Positions 2,070-33,294 of a stretch of DNA of 64,000 bases are shown in pieces. The translations under genes and the position numbers were made by a program. This stretch comes from Nitrosopumilaceae archaeon (GTDB taxonomy: Archaea; Thermoproteota; Nitrososphaeria; Nitrososphaerales; Nitrosopumilaceae): assembly GCA_965209085.1 (NCBI GenBank), contig OZ242376.1:128001-192000 (forward strand), read 5' to 3'. The notes under the pieces were generated by a model. It ran no database searches. It saw only the letters and a program-made list of their open reading frames with translations, and was not told the DNA's origin. Positions within the stretch are counted from its first letter, which is position 1. The number at the start of each line of letters is the position of its first letter.

Positions 2070-2996
2070 ATGGTAGATCCCATATACACTGACGCATTAA
2101 TATACGCTAGTTTGCTTGCAATGCTGGCCATTGGACTTACATTGACCTACATTACAACTCGAGTGCCAAATTTTGCACATGCTTCAATAGCTATGATTGG
2201 CGCATACATTGCGCTCATTATTACAAGAATTGTTGATATTAATCCATACATTTCAATTCCAATATCATTTGTTGTTGCCGGTATGGTTTCTCTTGGATTA
2301 TACACGTTTGTACTAAAACCTTTGATACGTCGGAACGCTTCAAAAGCAATTCAAATGATATCTACCATTGCATTTGATCTGATCTTGATAGGAGTTTTGA
2401 ATGTGCTTGCCGATTATATTGTAACCACGTATAAAATACCATCTAGAGAATTTACACTTCGTGGATATGATTTAGCAGTAGGTGATGCCCCAATGATACT
2501 GATAGTTGCACCAATATTGATTGCTTCATTGGCGTTTGCATTACATATCATGCTTCGTAAAACAAAATTTGGAGTGTCTATGAGAGCAGCGATAGAAAAT
2601 CCAGATTTGGCACAGGTGGTTGGAATCAATATAAATATTATTTATGCGGTTTCATGGTTTTTGGGTGGAGCAATGGCTGGAGTTGCAGGAGCGTTAATGT
2701 CATTATGGTTCCAGGGAGATCCGAGTCTTGGAATTACCATAATGCCTAGCATATTTGCCGCAAGTATAGTTGGTGGATTTTCTAGCATATATGGTGCAAT
2801 AGCCGGAGGCATGTTGATAGGCCTAACGGAAATACTTGGAACTAGATTTCTTGCCAGTGAACTTGGTACGTGGATAATATCCTACCGTCCATTAATTCCT
2901 CTAATATTCATAGTTATTACAATAATGATCGCCCCCAATGGTTTGGCTGGCATAAAATTGAAGGAGGTTGCAAAACGCATTGGTATTAGAAAATGA
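2070..2996 (+). CDS. livH: Branched-chain amino acid ABC transporter permease, LivH-like
   Basis: GLTLTY..TRVPNFAHA, TKFGVSMRAAIEN..A..VGIN, IVGGFSSIYGAIAGG. Confidence 0.85.
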   Translation: MVDPIYTDALIYASLLAMLAIGLTLTYITTRVPNFAHASIAMIGAYIALIITRIVDINPYISIPISFVVAGMVSLGLYTFVLKPLIRRNASKAIQMISTIAFDLILIGVLNVLADYIVTTYKIPSREFTLRGYDLAVGDAPMILIVAPILIASLAFALHIMLRKTKFGVSMRAAIENPDLAQVVGININIIYAVSWFLGGAMAGVAGALMSLWFQGDPSLGITIMPSIFAASIVGGFSSIYGAIAGGMLIGLTEILGTRFLASELGTWIISYRPLIPLIFIVITIMIAPNGLAGIKLKEVAKRIGIRK

Positions 2997-4017
2997 AATC
3001 GTATTTTTTGCTGATTTGATGGCAATATATGCAATATATCTAATCATCAACACCAGCTTGAATTTGGAATTTGGCTTTGCTGGCATTCCAAATTTTGGTA
3101 AAGTTTTGGCAGTGGCAGCGGGTGCATTCGTCGCAGCATCAATTCCTGGAAGAATGTTGGTAGCGATGGCAGGAATAGAAGGTGATTATATACGGGATAA
3201 TTTTAGAATAATTTCCGAAGTTAACATATGGCTTGTAGATAATACTGGAATTGGCATTATCGTGTTTGTTCTAACTTTGGGGATAGCTGCAATCATTGGT
3301 AGTATAATGGGACTTGTTTCATCATATCCTGGAATCCGATTACGTGGAGATTATTTGGCAATTGTTTTACTAGCACTAGGCGAGGGTATACGAATAATTG
3401 GCAATAATTATGCCCCGCTTGTTGGAGGATCAATTGGAGTACACATACCTGATCCACTTTCATTTTTAGCAGGAGATTTGAGATTTCCAATTGCAACGGT
3501 GGCACTTGTAGGTATTGCGGCAGCAGTCTATCTATATGTGCGGCGTGTAACTAGATCCCCCCTTGGCAGATTGCTGAGATCTATAAGGGATGATGAAACG
3601 GCCGCCGAAGCTTTAGGTAAGAACATAAAATCAGCACGCATAAGAACCATCATGATGGCTGCGGCACTTGCTGCAGTTGGCGGAGCACTTTATGCGTTTT
3701 ATGTAGGAAGTACCATAGCATTTGCATACGATAGACTGAGCTGGACGTTTTGGCCGTTTGTTATGATTATAATAGGAGGTCTTGCTAACAACAAGGGCGT
3801 ATTAATAGGTACATTGGTATTTGTCACAATGCGTAAAGTAATAATTTACTTTAAAGAATATTTGGAAAATTTTGTCCCGTTTGACGTAATATGGTTAGAA
3901 TATCTTTTATTAGGAACAATATTGATTATAGTACTAATATACAGACCGCAGGGAATATTCCCAGAAAAACCAACCAAAACTCTACCAAATTCCAAAAAAA
4001 CTTGGTGGCGTAATTAA
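2968..4017 (+). CDS. livM: Branched-chain amino acid ABC transporter permease, LivM-like
   Basis: SLNLEFGFAGIPNFG, LRGDYLAIVLLALGE, SPLGRLLRSIRDDETAAEALG, RPQGI. Confidence 0.85.
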   Translation: MQNALVLENEIVFFADLMAIYAIYLIINTSLNLEFGFAGIPNFGKVLAVAAGAFVAASIPGRMLVAMAGIEGDYIRDNFRIISEVNIWLVDNTGIGIIVFVLTLGIAAIIGSIMGLVSSYPGIRLRGDYLAIVLLALGEGIRIIGNNYAPLVGGSIGVHIPDPLSFLAGDLRFPIATVALVGIAAAVYLYVRRVTRSPLGRLLRSIRDDETAAEALGKNIKSARIRTIMMAAALAAVGGALYAFYVGSTIAFAYDRLSWTFWPFVMIIIGGLANNKGVLIGTLVFVTMRKVIIYFKEYLENFVPFDVIWLEYLLLGTILIIVLIYRPQGIFPEKPTKTLPNSKKTWWRN

Positions 4018-27154: not shown

Positions 27155-27721
27155 ATGGCAGACACAAAAATCACCATAAACTCGATCTATATGACTTTAC
27201 AGCGTGAGGCTGAGAATGATTCTATTCAGGAGCTTCCACGTAATTATTACCAGTCAGCATCAACGGTTTTAGGAACCATGGCGAAGGAAAAATATGATGG
27301 CATAGAAGGGATATTGAATACACGGTTTTTCACTATCGCATCAGAACTTGCAGCATTACTTTTGCACATAAGACTTGAAAAAGTATTAAACGATCCAAAT
27401 ACCGATAAAATAAATCTCTTAGACGTGGAAAAATTTATTCTAGATTCCAATACGGACATGAATGCCAAAAAAAACATGATTATAACTGGAGTGTTACATG
27501 GCAAATTCAAACTTCTTGAATCAATTGCCACTGCTCAGAAAACCAAACCCATGTTAATACGGTTTCTGCAGGATTCAGAACAAATTATTGGAGCAGACAT
27601 GGCAAAATACGGGCCGTTTAAGGCAGAAGATGTAGCTTCAGTTCCATATGATAACGCACAAGCATTTATTGGTCAAAAAATTGCTTCAAAAGTCATTATT
27701 GATGAAGACCAATCGAGCTGA
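27155..27721 (+). CDS. GINS complex subunit (Gins51/Gins15-like)
   Basis: IQELPRNYY, IRLEKV, C-terminal IIGADMAKYGPFKAEDVASVP B-domain. Confidence 0.8.
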   Translation: MADTKITINSIYMTLQREAENDSIQELPRNYYQSASTVLGTMAKEKYDGIEGILNTRFFTIASELAALLLHIRLEKVLNDPNTDKINLLDVEKFILDSNTDMNAKKNMIITGVLHGKFKLLESIATAQKTKPMLIRFLQDSEQIIGADMAKYGPFKAEDVASVPYDNAQAFIGQKIASKVIIDEDQSS

Positions 27722-27736
27722 TGTTGCATATCTCAC

Positions 27737-28003
27737 ATTGACGTAGATGTAATTGATTTTCTTTTAATCACGATATATCCGGTCGCAGGTCTTCTTGGAA
27801 TTGAAATAATTTTTAGAATTGTAAAAGGATCTCAGTGGTTAAAATTATCAATACAAGGATTGCTCTCACTTGCTTTTGCAATTGCATATGTAGTTTTGAT
27901 TACAGCACATTGGCTCACAGCAATAGTTTTAATTGCGCTGGCTATAGCATTATTTTATCAGTCAAAAAGATCCTTGTTGCATCCTGGCAAATCTCCTTAC
28001 TAG
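27737..28003 (+). CDS. Small 3-TM membrane protein without canonical start codon
   Basis: Open frame (IDVDVIDFLLITIYPVAGLLGIE...AHWLTAIVLIALAIALFYQ...PY*) with no ATG/GTG/TTG before the first TM; start uncertain. Confidence 0.5.
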   Translation: MDVDVIDFLLITIYPVAGLLGIEIIFRIVKGSQWLKLSIQGLLSLAFAIAYVVLITAHWLTAIVLIALAIALFYQSKRSLLHPGKSPY

Positions 28004-28218
28004 TTGCGGCCAAAAATTCTACTCAAAAATCCTTTTTTTGGACCGCCGTCTCGAATTATTTTTTTTCCACCAAACTTTTTTGATCTGATTTGTGTTAATT
28101 TCACACAACGGTGATCCTCTGGCAACCTATGTTCTGTACAAAAGGGATCTTTACAGTAATTACACTCAAATGGCATATCGATCATATCTCCACAATACGC
28201 ACACGGTTTTTCAAGCAT
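28000..28218 (-). CDS. AN1-type zinc finger protein
   Basis: CxxC...CxxC...FCxxHRLPEDHxC. Confidence 0.88.
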   Translation of the reverse strand: MLEKPCAYCGDMIDMPFECNYCKDPFCTEHRLPEDHRCVKLTQIRSKKFGGKKIIRDGGPKKGFLSRIFGRN

Positions 28219-28327
28219 ATGGTTTCATTTGAATAATCTGCCTATTAAACATCTAGACCATTTTGACGTATGAGGTCACGTCATGCCTAGAATTTATGCA
28301 ATAAATAGACCGTATCCATGTGAATAC

Positions 28328-28343
28328 TTTTTAAAGGTTTCTT
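28328..28343 (-). promoter_or_regulatory. TATA box (TTTAAAAA) plus purine-rich BRE-like sequence, positioned for the recombinase only after circularisation
   Basis: In the joined-end circle the box lies at -30 to -23 from the GTG at 29640. Confidence 0.6.
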
Positions 28344-28518
28344 GCTTTTTTGTGTCATGCGGTATGGCTTTCGCTATGTGTCTGGTTCCAACCAAAAGAT
28401 AAAAGACATCTATCCATTCGGGATTTAATCCCACAACCATCTTCATCTACATGTTAAAGCTTACCGCAGTTATGCAGCCGGGGTAACATCCCCAAAGTCT
28501 AACCCGCGGTTTGTTGCT
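28340..28518 (-). ncRNA. Putative bridge/seek RNA with target- and donor-binding loops
   Basis: Hairpin 1 (28463-28510) loops UUAGACUU and UGCAUA match the MITE-B terminus; hairpin 2 (28397-28448) loops AUGGUUGU and AUGGAUA match the IS circle junction ATGGT-TAT-CCAT; transcript ends are estimates. Confidence 0.8.
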
Positions 28519-29640
28519 TTAACGATGATGTATTTCAAATTCACTCCTATCCTTTAGCATACGAAATATGATATCCAGCATCTTGGCCGCTGCTGCAACT
28601 TTGGCCTTGGATGATCCTCTCTTTTTTGCAAGACGCCGGTAAAATTCAGAAATGTTACTCTCTGATGCAAATCGGACATGTGTGGTAACAGCTTCCACCA
28701 ATGCCCACCGCATCATCCTGCTGCCTCTTTTTGTTATATGTCCGTGATGGACCACATCTGCTGAATTACGAACCGATGGGGCAAGACCCGCATATGATTT
28801 GAGTTGTTTTGGTTCAGAAAATCTCTCAACTCCATCAATCTCTGCTGCCAGTATCAATGAAATAAAATCACCTATGCCAGGTATTATCTTGAGCAACATT
28901 GCATCCTTGTTTGAACAGGATGCGTTGTGTACCTTTATGTTTGAGTCTGCAATTTTTGTATTAACGAATCCAATAGAATCCAAATATCCGTTTATACGGT
29001 AATCCTTTAGAGAACGCAGTTTTCTATTGTATGTAAGCGTAAATGTTGCTCCAAAGATCTTTATCCCTCCCTGTAATAAAATTCCATGTATTTTGTTTTT
29101 TAGAGTTGTCCTTGTCTTGACAAGACTGTCGCGATATCGTACAAGTTGCCGTTGTTCCACTATGTCCTTGTTTGAGACATGACAGAGGGATATGTATCCG
29201 CATCGTAACAGATCTGCAAGTGTTACAGCATCCCTCTTGTCGGTCTTTTTCTTGGATGCGGCGATGATTTTTGTCGCCCATGGATTTGACAATACGACAT
29301 TATAACCCATTTTATCTGTCATGTATCGATATAGACCGTACCATACGGATGAAGATTCCATTACGATTTTTGCATTTTCAGGTACGCTTGATCTGAAGAA
29401 TCGACTGATGGACTTGTTTTCATTTTCAATCCTCTCATTAAAAATCACTTTGGCTTTTTTATCCATCATTGCAACTTGAAGAAATTTCTTGTGAACGTCC
29501 ATTCCAACAAACATATTCTTCCCAGAATATGTGGTAATCTGTTTGTTTGCATTTGGATCTTTTTTAGATGATTTACGTTTCGGTGATACGGATCGTTTGA
29601 CATTCTTACAACCATCTGTGGTCTTAGAAGCTCTCTTCAC
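28519..29640 (-). CDS. IS110-family DEDD transposase/recombinase
   Basis: GMDVHK, VMESS, KTDKRDA (DEDD); IPGIG, YAGLAPSVRNSA (catalytic Ser region), TKRGSRMMRWAL; alternative start ATG 29514. Confidence 0.96.
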   Translation of the reverse strand: MKRASKTTDGCKNVKRSVSPKRKSSKKDPNANKQITTYSGKNMFVGMDVHKKFLQVAMMDKKAKVIFNERIENENKSISRFFRSSVPENAKIVMESSSVWYGLYRYMTDKMGYNVVLSNPWATKIIAASKKKTDKRDAVTLADLLRCGYISLCHVSNKDIVEQRQLVRYRDSLVKTRTTLKNKIHGILLQGGIKIFGATFTLTYNRKLRSLKDYRINGYLDSIGFVNTKIADSNIKVHNASCSNKDAMLLKIIPGIGDFISLILAAEIDGVERFSEPKQLKSYAGLAPSVRNSADVVHHGHITKRGSRMMRWALVEAVTTHVRFASESNISEFYRRLAKKRGSSKAKVAAAAKMLDIIFRMLKDRSEFEIHHR

Positions 29641-29772
29641 ATATGGTTATGCATAATCGTTCAAATTGGTCATTTTTATTCGTAAAAATTGTGAATTTGA
29701 CCCATTATGCATGAAGTCTAATGAAGATGTATGCATAAAATAACACGAGGTACTGACCTCATACATTTTGAC

Positions 29773-29853
29773 ACGTAAGTTTATGCTGTGCCTATAATTT
29801 ACACGAAAAATCAAGATCTAGGCACAAAATAAGACTGGGCGTTGACCTCATAC
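29773..29853. mobile_element. Older degenerate MITE family A copy in tandem
   Basis: 81 bp, intact right TIR TGACCTCATAC, internal tgccta/taggca; flanks ATTTTGAC/ATTTTGAT. Confidence 0.8.
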
Positions 29854-29948
29854 ATTTTGATAGAAATTGCATGCGTGGTCATTTTATATCTGATAATTCT
29901 AGGCGACATTATATCGTTATATCCAAATATGCCGTTATCACAGATAAT

Positions 29949-30692
29949 ATGATGTTAAAGGATAAAGTGGCAATAATAACCGGTGCAAGTAGCGGCATTG
30001 GACGAGCTACTGCCATCGCACTAGCCGGCCAGGGTTGTAAAGTGGCCATTGGAGCTAGAAGAACATCCAATCTTGAAAAACTACAAGATGAAATTGAAAA
30101 ATCCGGTGGACAGGCTTTTGCACAAAAGCTTGATGTTTCTGATAGACATAGCTGTGAATCATTTGTAAAAGAAGTTTTAAAAAAATGGAACGAAGTGGAC
30201 ATACTGGTAAACAATGCTGGTCTTATGCCGTTGAGTTTTTTTAAGAATTTAAAATATGACGAATGGGATCAAATGATCGACGTAAACATAAAAGGTGTTC
30301 TCTACTGTACCGGCGCGGTCATTAATCACATGAAATCCAAAAAATCTGGTCATATTGTAAATATTTCATCCGTTGCAGGAAGAATTGTTTTTCCTTCTGG
30401 CAGTGTTTATTGTGCTACAAAACATGCCGTAACCGCATTAAGCGAAGGACTTCGTCAGGAATTTAGCGCACGTTCGAACATACGTGTAACATGCATAGAA
30501 CCTGGTGTTGTGGCAACAGAACTAACCCACACTATAACCGATGAATCCTTGAAAGATTTTGTCGATAAAGCAAAAACCATGGAATCTCTTTCAGCCGATG
30601 ATATTGCAAAAGCAATTGTATATGCCGTGGATTCCCCTATGAATGTAAACGTAAACGAGATTCTCATAAGACCTACTACGCAGGAGCGTTAG
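29949..30692 (+). CDS. Short-chain dehydrogenase/reductase (YdfG/YoxD-like)
   Basis: TGASSGIG, LVNNAG, NISSVAG, YCATKH, IEPGVVAT; start moved from 29871 to MMLKDK. Confidence 0.93.
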   Translation: MMLKDKVAIITGASSGIGRATAIALAGQGCKVAIGARRTSNLEKLQDEIEKSGGQAFAQKLDVSDRHSCESFVKEVLKKWNEVDILVNNAGLMPLSFFKNLKYDEWDQMIDVNIKGVLYCTGAVINHMKSKKSGHIVNISSVAGRIVFPSGSVYCATKHAVTALSEGLRQEFSARSNIRVTCIEPGVVATELTHTITDESLKDFVDKAKTMESLSADDIAKAIVYAVDSPMNVNVNEILIRPTTQER

Positions 30693-31900: not shown

Positions 31901-32015
31901 AATGAAATCTCATACATAACGTGTTAAAAACTAATTACTCCAAATCTGGCATTATGATTCTGATTTGTATTATTATACGGCATAACTACGTTAAATAGGC
32001 AAATTTTTACATATT

Positions 32016-32093
32016 AGACTTCATGCATAATGGGCCAAATTCACAATTTTTACGAATAAAAATGACTGATTTTAATGATTATGCGTGAGGTCT
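32016..32093. mobile_element. 78-bp MITE family B, intact copy
   Basis: AGACTTCATGCATAAT ... ATTATGCGTGAGGTCT imperfect TIR; TSD ATT/ATT. Confidence 0.88.
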
Positions 32094-32115: not shown

Positions 32116-33294
32116 GTGCTTTTGAATTCATTTATGCACCAGAACAGAGTTTTAATTCTAACCCTACTAGCCGTCACTTCAATAATGGTTCCACTATACG
32201 CTTCAGCTCAATCCGAAAACATGGTGGCAACAGTTGAAACAAAATCCGGAAACTTTGTAATAGAATTTTTCCCTGATGTTGCTCCCTCTCACGTAAATAA
32301 TTTCATCACATTATCTAAAGATGGATATTATGACGGAACCGTCTTCCATCGTGTCATAAATGGATTTATGATACAGGGAGGTGATCCAAATACAAAAGAT
32401 CCAGAATTAATTTCACTTTGGGGTACAGGAGGACCGGGTTATTCTGTTAATGCGGAATTTAACGATATATCCCATGAAAGAGGTATTGTATCGATGGCTA
32501 GATCACAGGATCCAAACAGTGCCGGTTCACAATTCTTTATTATACACGGAGATGCAAGTTTCTTAGATGGTTATTATACAGTTTTTGGCAAAATAGTTGG
32601 TGATGAAAGTTTTACAACATTGGATAAAATAGCAAACATGGAGACTTCACTTAATGATGTACCTGTAGATTGGCAGAACACTGAGATTATTTCAATCACA
32701 TTTGATAAAACAATATTTGATAAAACAATATTTGATGAAACAATATTTGATGAAACAATATTTGATGAAACAATGTTTGATGAAACAATATTTGATGAAA
32801 CAATGCCTGATGAAACAATATTTGATGAAACAATGCCTGATGAAACAATATTTGATGAAACAATGCCTGATGAAACAATGCCTGGTGGCGGTGGATGTCT
32901 TATAGCTACTGCGGCATTTGGATCCGAAATGGCACCCCAGGTTCAAAATCTAAGAGAAATTCGCGACAACATAGTACTAGAAACCGAATCTGGAAGGACG
33001 TTCATGACATCGTTTAACCATATCTATTACGCATTTTCTCCTACAGTGGCTGATTTGGAACGTGAAAATCCAATAGTGAGAGACATCATTCAGATTACAA
33101 TAACTCCGATGATTGTATCCCTCACAATGCTTGAAAATATAGAAATTAATTCAGAGGCAACAATGATCAGCTATGGAATGTTGGTAATACTAGTTAATAT
33201 TTTCATGTATGTGGGAATCCCACTGACCGTATTGTACATTCTAAAACAATATTTTACAAGCATATCAAAAAATAAAAAATACATTGCCGCTTGA
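32116..33294 (+). CDS. Secreted cyclophilin-type peptidyl-prolyl isomerase with CFI-box-CTERM anchor
   Basis: FHRVINGFMIQGGDP, SMARSQDPNSAGSQFFI, YTVFG; GGCLIATAAFGSEMAPQVQ. Confidence 0.92.
   Translation: MLLNSFMHQNRVLILTLLAVTSIMVPLYASAQSENMVATVETKSGNFVIEFFPDVAPSHVNNFITLSKDGYYDGTVFHRVINGFMIQGGDPNTKDPELISLWGTGGPGYSVNAEFNDISHERGIVSMARSQDPNSAGSQFFIIHGDASFLDGYYTVFGKIVGDESFTTLDKIANMETSLNDVPVDWQNTEIISITFDKTIFDKTIFDETIFDETIFDETMFDETIFDETMPDETIFDETMPDETIFDETMPDETMPGGGGCLIATAAFGSEMAPQVQNLREIRDNIVLETESGRTFMTSFNHIYYAFSPTVADLERENPIVRDIIQITITPMIVSLTMLENIEINSEATMISYGMLVILVNIFMYVGIPLTVLYILKQYFTSISKNKKYIAA
32701..32880 (+). repeat. 15-bp coding tandem repeat x12 (FDETI/PDETM)
   Basis: tttgatgaaacaata / cctgatgaaacaatg variants. 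Confidence 0.95.

Follow-up and report, generated by a model that had tools for sequence, protein, structure and literature searches.

A probable bridge RNA/seekRNA of an IS1111-type IS110-family element in an ammonia-oxidising archaeon

In this work, we analysed 64,000 nucleotides from a Nitrosopumilaceae archaeon (GenBank assembly GCA_965209085.1, contig OZ242376.1, positions 128,001 to 192,000 of the forward strand), hereafter the window, and focused on the minus-strand DNA that directly follows a recombinase gene. We consider it very likely that this locus encodes a guide RNA (a bridge RNA or seekRNA) belonging to an IS1111-type element of the IS110 family in an ammonia-oxidising archaeon. 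It holds two stem-loop modules: the internal loop of the first (loop 1) matches the DNA on both sides of the insertion, and that of the second (loop 2) matches both ends of the element. A preliminary description, made from the letters of the window, had seen here an intact RNA-programmed recombinase system. All the sequence-level predictions that we tried held, and the word intact is to be read as a judgement from sequence only.

Guide strands and the DNA they match

The element belongs to a family (family 1) with 7 full-length copies and nine 3' fragments in a genome of 1.69 Mb, which have the junctions N-TA-ACCATATG and CACATGGA-TA-N in common. Its ends were fixed by aligning the 7 full-length copies, which have differing flanks. 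A second family (family 2), with 65% DNA identity and 60% protein identity to family 1, has 4 copies with the same ends and a broken open reading frame (ORF) in every one. The window copy interrupts one terminal inverted repeat of a palindromic miniature inverted-repeat transposable element (MITE) of ~80 bp. The features needed to follow the guides are these:

28313-29649, minus strand: family-1 IS110-family element of ~1.33 kb, both TA core copies included (29649-29648 and 28314-28313), with ends from the 7-copy alignment
28463-28510, minus strand: putative target-binding module (module 1), with outer stem ACCGCGG/CUGCGGU, internal loop and inner hairpin GGGG-AUGUUA-CCCC
28494-28503, minus strand: G1, the 5' strand of loop 1, GUUAGACUUU, matching the right flank
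28470-28479, minus strand: G2, the 3' strand of loop 1, GGCUGCAUAA, in the same sense as the left flank plus the TA core and reading TGCA-TA-A
28404-28448, minus strand: putative donor-binding module (module 2), with outer stem GGAUG/UGUCU, internal loop and inner hairpin GGGAU-UAA-AUCCC
28433-28443, minus strand: D1, the 5' strand of loop 2, AAGAUGGUUGU, pairing with the left-end A-TA-ACCAT with one G.T wobble
28409-28419, minus strand: D2, the 3' strand of loop 2, GAAUGGAUAGA, in the same sense as the right end ATGGA-TA

Both modules stand directly 3' of the stop codon and are alike in build, with an outer stem, an internal loop of 10-11 nt plus 10-11 nt and an inner hairpin. On the minus strand, module 1 reads A-CCGCGG (28510-28504), GUUAGACUUU (28503-28494), GGGG-AUGUUA-CCCC (28493-28480), GGCUGCAUAA (28479-28470) and CUGCGG-U (28469-28463). 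Within its outer stem, module 2 reads AAGAUGGUUGU (28443-28433), GGGAU-UAA-AUCCC (28432-28420) and GAAUGGAUAGA (28419-28409).

For loop 1, we regard the comparison of divergent elements as the decisive evidence that it would guide target choice. The preliminary description had proposed to check homologous copies for covariation, and both loop-1 strands do track their flanks across ~15 insertions, family 2 and 11/150 related genomes. Scores of G1 and G2 against the flanks were computed with the core excluded, and shuffles were made at the level of guide classes. The mean G1 score was 5.09 for the own flank (34 events) versus 3.28 for flanks of other guide classes (924 pairs). Scores of at least 6 were reached by 38% of the own flanks and by 1.3% of the others, and 0/5000 shuffles of the 12 guide classes reached the observed mean. 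The matches of G2 are shorter (3-5 nt plus the core), with a mean of 3.45 for the own flank (n = 22) versus 2.54 for the others (n = 412); here too, 0/5000 shuffles (9 classes) reached the observed value. The G2 variants GGGGAAC and GGGGAAG were found beside GGAAC and GGAAG flanks in 5/6 cases.

Sister pairs of elements displayed joint changes of guide and flank: L054/L057 (A/G), and L058/L061 and L047/L052 (C/T). Such changes include GUAAAUAUAU with GTAAATA versus GUAAAUGUAU with GTAAATG, together with UAUCCUA versus UGAUGU and CGCCAG versus CGCUAG. The G1 register is off by 1 in some lineages.

Family 2 carries a different G1, CGCAGUAUAU, and is sited at TA-TACTGCG, with a match of 10/10. 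Its target is the tip of a 1120-bp repeated element, two empty copies of which begin at the same TA. Regarding this repeated element itself, one copy lies at G000:C1:667870-668989 (L022 ~2837-3956), others are at 1091053 and 1361699, and it encodes a protein of 295 aa. Its tip reads TA-TACTGCGGATC, and a family-2 element stands exactly there in at least 3 of ~7 copies.

Within family 1, we found three G1 variants. The variant UUAGAGUUU lies in TTAGAGTT(T)-AT targets in 4/4 copies. The variant UUAGACUUU (C-guide) accounts for 9 distinct events, 6 at TAGACC-type sites and 3 at TAGAG-type sites; one of the six reads TGGACC, and several of them are fully paired when U.G wobbles are allowed. The perfect-match target is TTATGCA-TA-AACTCTAA for the G-guide and TTATGCA-TA-AAGTCTAA for the C-guide. 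The occupied site of the window reads TTATGCA-TA-CGGTCTA, and a target with the CAT-type core reads TTATGCA-TG-AAGTCTA.

Several details of the preliminary description concern the window copy. The UGCAUA that it read in G2 is located at 28476-28471, and the mismatch that it saw at the occupied site (CG versus UU) is real, one of the two positions being a U.G wobble. It had also equated TTAGACTT in G1 with the MITE end. This octamer occurs in the window at 28495-28502 (minus), 29714-29721 (minus) and 32014-32021 (plus). Thus the identity is there, and its bare count is ordinary, with at least 3 matches in 31/100 shuffles.

Loop 2 was likewise said to match the joined ends of the element. The 7-mer of D2 is identical to the right end in 20/22 elements, and D1 pairs with ACCAT plus the flanking A. 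It is unlikely, in our view, that loop 1 alone guides, as in a target-only seekRNA, with loop 2 as a protein-binding scaffold and the ends read by the recombinase through their sub-terminal repeats; loop 2 would then resemble the ends because the same protein constrains both. Such an arrangement would suit the near-invariance of ends and loop 2, which leaves a thin covariation (the G/A switch of D2 and two left-end variants), and the two D1 positions facing the core, which are not complementary to TA in most lineages. Moreover, Siddiquee et al. report target matches in short seekRNAs, and end recognition in IS1111 may differ (PMC11187229). However, the covariation that exists goes in the direction of donor guiding. 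In 22/22 elements, the right end has the same G/A variant as D2 (AUGGAUA or AUAGAUA), 11 per state and each state in several genomes; D2 and the right end are both changed to GGG in L040; and D1 tracks the left-end variants ACCGT (L031) and GTCAT (L047). Loop 2 also has the same internal-loop build of 11 + 11 nt as loop 1.

RNA fold, conservation and what weighs against a guide

The stem, internal loop and hairpin that the preliminary description drew for module 1 have the letters that it gave, and they appear in both the minimum-energy fold and the centroid. For module 2, the inner hairpin is in both as well, and the outer stem is in the centroid only. The folding check of the minus-strand region that had been proposed therefore bore out module 1 and the inner hairpin of module 2; the fold energy was modestly better than that of shuffled sequences.

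The outer stem first drawn for module 2, AGAUGAAG/UCUUUUAUCU, had to be given up. Its 8 bp are possible in the window copy and absent from the sister copies; across the comparison, it can form in ~8 lineages only and is mutually exclusive with the universal GGAUG/UGUCU. The latter stem (28448-28444 with 28408-28404) is present in 28/28 sequences that our script could parse.

We built a covariance model from 17 copies of this genome. It retrieved the same RNA in 11/150 other genomes of the same taxonomic family, and a search of 150 genomes sampled across the phylum, run under strict filters, gave no match other than in the window genome. Most of the 26 RNA matches that we fetched lie directly 3' of an IS110-type gene (36-62% identity), and a few are solo. 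A third conserved RNA-like block is found at 28345-28385 (minus), between module 2 and a TATA-like box described below. It reads UAGCGAAAGCCAUAC, may form a GNRA hairpin and is present in most homologues.

The region could also be a structured 3' untranslated region or terminator of the recombinase mRNA, with no guide acting in trans and with the likeness to the flanks left behind as a scar when a target was captured or when copies recombined. Its position directly after the stop codon, which the outermost stem takes in, and the U-tracts after module 2 in the window copy would agree with this idea. We think it very improbable: a scar would not put the target halves on the two strands of one internal loop, change in step with targets across 12 guide classes or keep stems by compensatory changes, and the U-tracts are not conserved. 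As for chance, the ordinary count of TTAGACTT and the modest z-scores of the fold can be cited in its favour, but the shuffles of either loop-1 strand, the 10/10 match of family 2 and the RNA homologues that adjoin IS110 genes in 11 other genomes make it hardly credible.

Several observations do weigh against the guide RNA that we favour. The window copy is no ideal example, as its G1 forms 6 Watson-Crick pairs and 1 wobble out of 9 positions with its own flank. Within the genome, C-guide copies are in G-type targets in 3/9 events, and the association of guide variants with target variants (Fisher p = 0.07) is not significant alone and is only suggestive. It would be blurred because the copies have the same ends, so that guides could act in trans. 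The G1 duplex of family 1 ends at the first core nucleotide, 2 nt short of that in family 2 and most relatives, whose G1 ends in UAU. This shift of register may be tolerated, given the flipped-out guide bases in the solved IS621 complex, which also has wobble pairs (PMC11208158). For the donor loop, the D1 positions facing the core count here too. The fold energies gave z-scores of -1.70 (236 nt) and -1.97 (142 nt), and 4/200 shuffles fold as well as the 142 nt. As a single sequence folds only modestly better than shuffles, the above-chance case rests on comparative data. In these, paired cells amount to 96.8%, versus 35-53% with the partners slid, and both sides change in 12/20 pairs, in an alignment fitted to the covariance model and among lineages that are related. 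Finally, an Rfam scan of 27500-30500 gave no bridge-RNA family and 4 unrelated matches (E 1.8-9.1), far below gathering scores.

Ends, core, recombinase and copies in the genome

The remaining features of the element and its target are, in order of position:

28304-28312, minus strand: right part of the interrupted MITE, CGGTCTATT, with TAGACCG as reverse complement
28315-28322, minus strand: right-end sub-terminal inverted repeat CACATGGA, from the copy alignment
28328-28335, minus strand: TTTAAAAA box, beginning 23 nt before the element end, a candidate outward-facing archaeal TATA box
28519-29640, minus strand: recombinase ORF, 373 aa from a GTG within the left-end inverted repeat or 331 aa from an ATG at 29514
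29608-29620, minus strand: LE-int, CACAGATGGTTGT, an internal inverted copy of the left terminus and same-sense twin of D1, encoding D-G-C residues of the N-terminal extension
29638-29647, minus strand: left-end sub-terminal inverted repeat ACCATATGTG, holding the GTG start codon
29650-29723, minus strand: left part of the interrupted ~80-bp palindromic MITE, the target, with an unoccupied far end TAGACTT-CAT-GCATAA

In gene orientation, the element reads flank-TA-ACCATATGTG...CACATGGA-TA-flank. Its sub-terminal inverted repeats, CCATATGTG placed 1 nt inside the left end and CACATGG placed 1 nt inside the right end, are kept in all homologues. The joined ends read CACATGGA-TA-ACCATATG, so that the copy alignment agrees with the preliminary reading of them. 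The stop codon (28519) is followed by ~205 non-coding nt up to the right end (28315), and the left end lies only 7-8 nt before the GTG and 133 nt before the ATG.

The core was first described as TAT/AT. TA is present at both junctions of families 1 and 2, and the family-2 junctions, N-TA-ACC and GGA-TA-T, have TA alone in common. We thus define the core as the dinucleotide TA –the first two letters of the plus-strand TAT–, which rules out AT or AA.

Insertion took place without a long target duplication, and the reconstructed empty site equals uninterrupted MITE ends: TAGACCG-TA-TGCATAA occurs uninterrupted 8 times elsewhere in the genome. In repeat-fragmented contigs of DNA runs X1-X4, uninterrupted MITE copies have TAGACCG directly before TATGCATAA, and no circle junction was seen in these contigs. 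One contig of run X4 skips 28303-29720.

Among the empty MITE ends of the genome (n = 74), 42 have CAT at the core position and 32 have TAT. The right junctions of the insertion events have TA in 14/15 cases and TG in 1/15 (Fisher p = 3.8e-4 versus the empty ends). TAGACTT, the best match for the C-guide, is found in 18 empty copies (16 with CAT) and 0 occupied ones. These counts fit a requirement for a TA core, as indirect evidence, since the core at the junction may derive from the donor. The same requirement would explain why the other end of the window's MITE (TTAGACTT-CAT) is empty.

A second MITE family is found at 29720-29860 and 28260-28300, with the ends TCGTATGAGGTCA...TGACCTCATACG. 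It surrounds the interrupted MITE, which points to nested insertions, and the same type is the target of a related element in the sister genome G019 (L054, L057). The elements L054, L057 and L045 of that genome have TA at the left junction, TG at the right junction and UG in D2. This looks like insertion into a site with a TG core, each junction keeping the top-strand core.

At the protein level, the recombinase is, by its domains and motifs, a bona fide IS110-family member with DEDD and Ser residues. PF01548 (97.7 bits) and PF02371 (77.1 bits) both exceeded their cut-offs, and NF033542 'IS110 family RNA-guided transposase' scored 218.6 bits (cut-off 140). The nearest solved structures are ISCro4 (9T56, E 2e-8) and IS621 (8WT6, E 6e-6), with good scoring confined to a C-terminal stretch; all PDB matches were to the IS110 group, and they were weak. 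In the 331-aa numbering, D6, E54, D92, D95 and S251 take the places of the ISCro4/IS621 catalytic residues in the alignment, and the motifs VGMDVH, VMESSS, KTDKRDA and P-SVRN-S-A align with their ISCro4 counterparts. The frame that starts at the GTG runs open into the catalytic domain in 17/19 distinct left ends. The N-terminal extension (29515-29640, minus) is basic, has 42 aa from the GTG and contains (S/T/A)DG and ANKQI motifs kept in relatives. The DNA under ANKQI (GCAAACAAACAGATTAC) shows unusually high nucleotide conservation across lineages with only ~50% protein identity.

The genome is one contig that encodes archaeal AmoA (394.7 bits), and the sole relative of the recombinase in a protein scan of the species contig collection was from the metagenome-assembled genome (MAG) of Nitrosopumilus sp. 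D6, with 54% identity. Since AmoA is encoded and this was the only match in the collection, we take the host to be an ammonia-oxidising archaeon, as the preliminary description had proposed from the window.

The ORF is intact in only 2/7 full-length family-1 copies, that of the window and one more, with 99-100% identity between the two. The nine 3' fragments are ordinary truncations. One is a microhomology deletion from LE-int to 28788, and a MITE interrupts another. We ruled out that the RNA module had transposed on its own, as in ISPpu9, since the 5' borders of the fragments are without the left target half. A derivative with an internal deletion, L012 (G000:C1:1681560-1682160), retains both ends, with ~43 nt remaining on the left side, as far as LE-int, and ~480 nt on the right side, where the RNA lies. 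This is possibly a non-autonomous element that has a guide RNA of its own. A similar joint, from 28788 to 29610, is present in one contig of DNA run X1.

Building on the observed anatomy, complementarity and covariation, we infer that the RNA is transcribed, bound by the protein and used in catalysis. The element would excise as a circle with the junction CACATGGA-TA-ACCATATG, and the RNA, directly 3' of the recombinase gene, would probably be cut from a longer transcript. Its donor loop would hold the circle junction while its target loop holds the target, G1 pairing, on the right side of the core, with 8-9 nt of the top strand, and G2 pairing with the core itself and, on its left side, with 3-5 nt of the bottom strand. 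The DEDD/Ser recombinase would then exchange strands at the common TA. Family 1 would be addressed to the terminal inverted repeat of the ~80-bp MITE (TAGAS..-TA-TGCATAA) and family 2 to the tip of another insertion element of 1.1 kb.

A box of the form YTTWWWWW (TTTAAAAA, CTTAAAAA or CTTATAAA) begins 22-25 nt before the end in 14/17 right ends. In the circle, this candidate TATA box would start transcription at the left end, ahead of the GTG in the inverted repeat. The conserved box, together with the GTG 8 nt inside the left end, supports the idea of a circle-junction promoter of archaeal type.

LE-int lies 30-36 nt inside the left end, in the codons of the conserved D-G-x motif of the N-terminal extension. 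When we compared the window element and the left ends of L031 and L033-L061, the variable dinucleotide was the same in D1 and LE-int in 16/18 rows (states TG, AC, AG, GC and AA), the core staying TA. As the covariation falls on the first and second positions of the x codon, which is free (C, T, S, A, K), the link acts on the nucleic acid and not on the protein. Two sources of the D1 dinucleotide were tried and rejected: pairing of handshake guides, which by eye showed no relation to the flank nucleotides, and pairing of LE-int with the left terminus, which fails for AC, AG, GC and AA. The covariation lies outside the published donor/target/handshake scheme and might mark a third, undescribed interaction, a suggestion that we hold as doubtful. 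Candidates are that D1 invades the LE-int duplex and frees the left terminus as a hairpin, that an antisense left-end RNA titrates the donor loop, or that the recombinase binds a mimic of the donor loop in its own mRNA. If any of them is true, bridge recombination would have a further level of regulation or mechanism.

The locus would extend bridge/seek RNAs, with clean comparative evidence, to the Nitrosopumilaceae, abundant ammonia-oxidising archaea. Nothing established is overturned, and specialists would expect such RNAs in archaeal IS110 elements. Within a single genome of 1.7 Mb, natural guide variants occur next to their own targets, numerous empty targets have either TAT or CAT at the core, and a second family has another address; altogether, this is a natural experiment that tests how exact the match of guide and core has to be. 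To our knowledge, ammonia-oxidising archaea are without routine genetic tools, and a native programmable recombinase with known RNA and ends would be a candidate tool for them. Given the conserved TATA-like box at the right end and the start codon within the left-end repeat, the element may have an archaeal counterpart to the circle-junction promoter known from bacteria. Elsewhere in the window, at 32655-32909 (plus), a cyclophilin-like ORF of 392 aa contains ~12 tandem units of 15 bp, which encode (I/M)FDET repeats.

Comparison with known systems

Durrant et al. 2024 give predicted bridge RNAs for 85.7% of the IS110 and 93.0% of the IS1111 entries in ISfinder (PMC11208160), and a further source puts the archaeal IS110 recombinases on record at 662 (10.1101/2024.06.21.599552). 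Among the papers listed in our literature searches, none linked Nitrosopumilus, Thaumarchaeota or Nitrososphaerota to IS110, bridge RNA or seekRNA, bar a 2012 soil metagenome paper with a single IS110 mention; supplementary tables (Table 5 of PMC11208160, target lists of PMC11187229) may hold such elements.

Our assignment to the IS1111 type, which should be read as provisional, draws on the downstream RNA, the order with the top-strand guide first and the sub-terminal repeats. Like the members of that group, the element has sub-terminal inverted repeats (group range 7-17 bp) and is found in repeated palindromic elements or at the ends of other mobile elements; REP (repetitive extragenic palindromic) sequences and Tn21 inverted repeats are targets of the group. 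As in the IS1111 seekRNA elements ISEc11, ISPa11 and ISKpn4 (PMC11187229) and in the IS1111 group of Durrant et al. (PMC11208160), a long non-coding region with the RNA lies downstream of the recombinase gene. As in IS1111 seekRNAs, the guide pairing with the top strand is 5' of the one pairing with the bottom strand, and the two target matches overlap at the core (PMC11187229). Unlike the described IS1111 elements, this one has an archaeal host of the Nitrosopumilaceae. Its donor guides are in a simple internal loop, whereas in many IS1111 elements they are in a multi-loop according to Durrant et al. (PMC11208160). Its C-terminal motif, GLAPSVRNSA, ends in SA and not in SG, TG or TA (PMC11187229), and its candidate junction promoter would be a TATA box instead of a -35/-10 pair.

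With IS621 and ISCro4 (PMC11208160; PMC11208158; PDB 8WT6, 9T56), the element has in common two internal loops, of which the target loop precedes the donor loop, and in each loop a longer guide on the 5' strand (8-10 nt) than on the 3' strand (4-7 nt). The strand lengths here also fit the 8-9 nt and 4-7 nt given by Durrant et al. (PMC11208160). A dinucleotide core common to donor and target and the DEDD and Ser residues are further likenesses. On the other hand, the RNA of IS621/ISCro4 is in the left end, upstream of the gene, and here it is downstream; the assignment of the 5' and 3' guide strands is reversed; the core of IS621/ISCro4 is CT instead of TA; and the similarity of the proteins is remote (E 2e-8 and 6e-6).

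Finally, ISPpu9 of Pseudomonas putida (PMC12288879) is also an IS110-family element in repeated palindromes, with an RNA gene downstream of the transposase gene and with solo copies of its 3' RNA module scattered through the genome. The solo 3' copies found here differ from those of ISPpu9 in being plain truncations and not box-flanked modules. The left-end RNA of ISPpu9, Asr9, is complementary to the downstream Ssr9 (PMC12288879), and this pair may parallel the twin formed here by D1 and LE-int.

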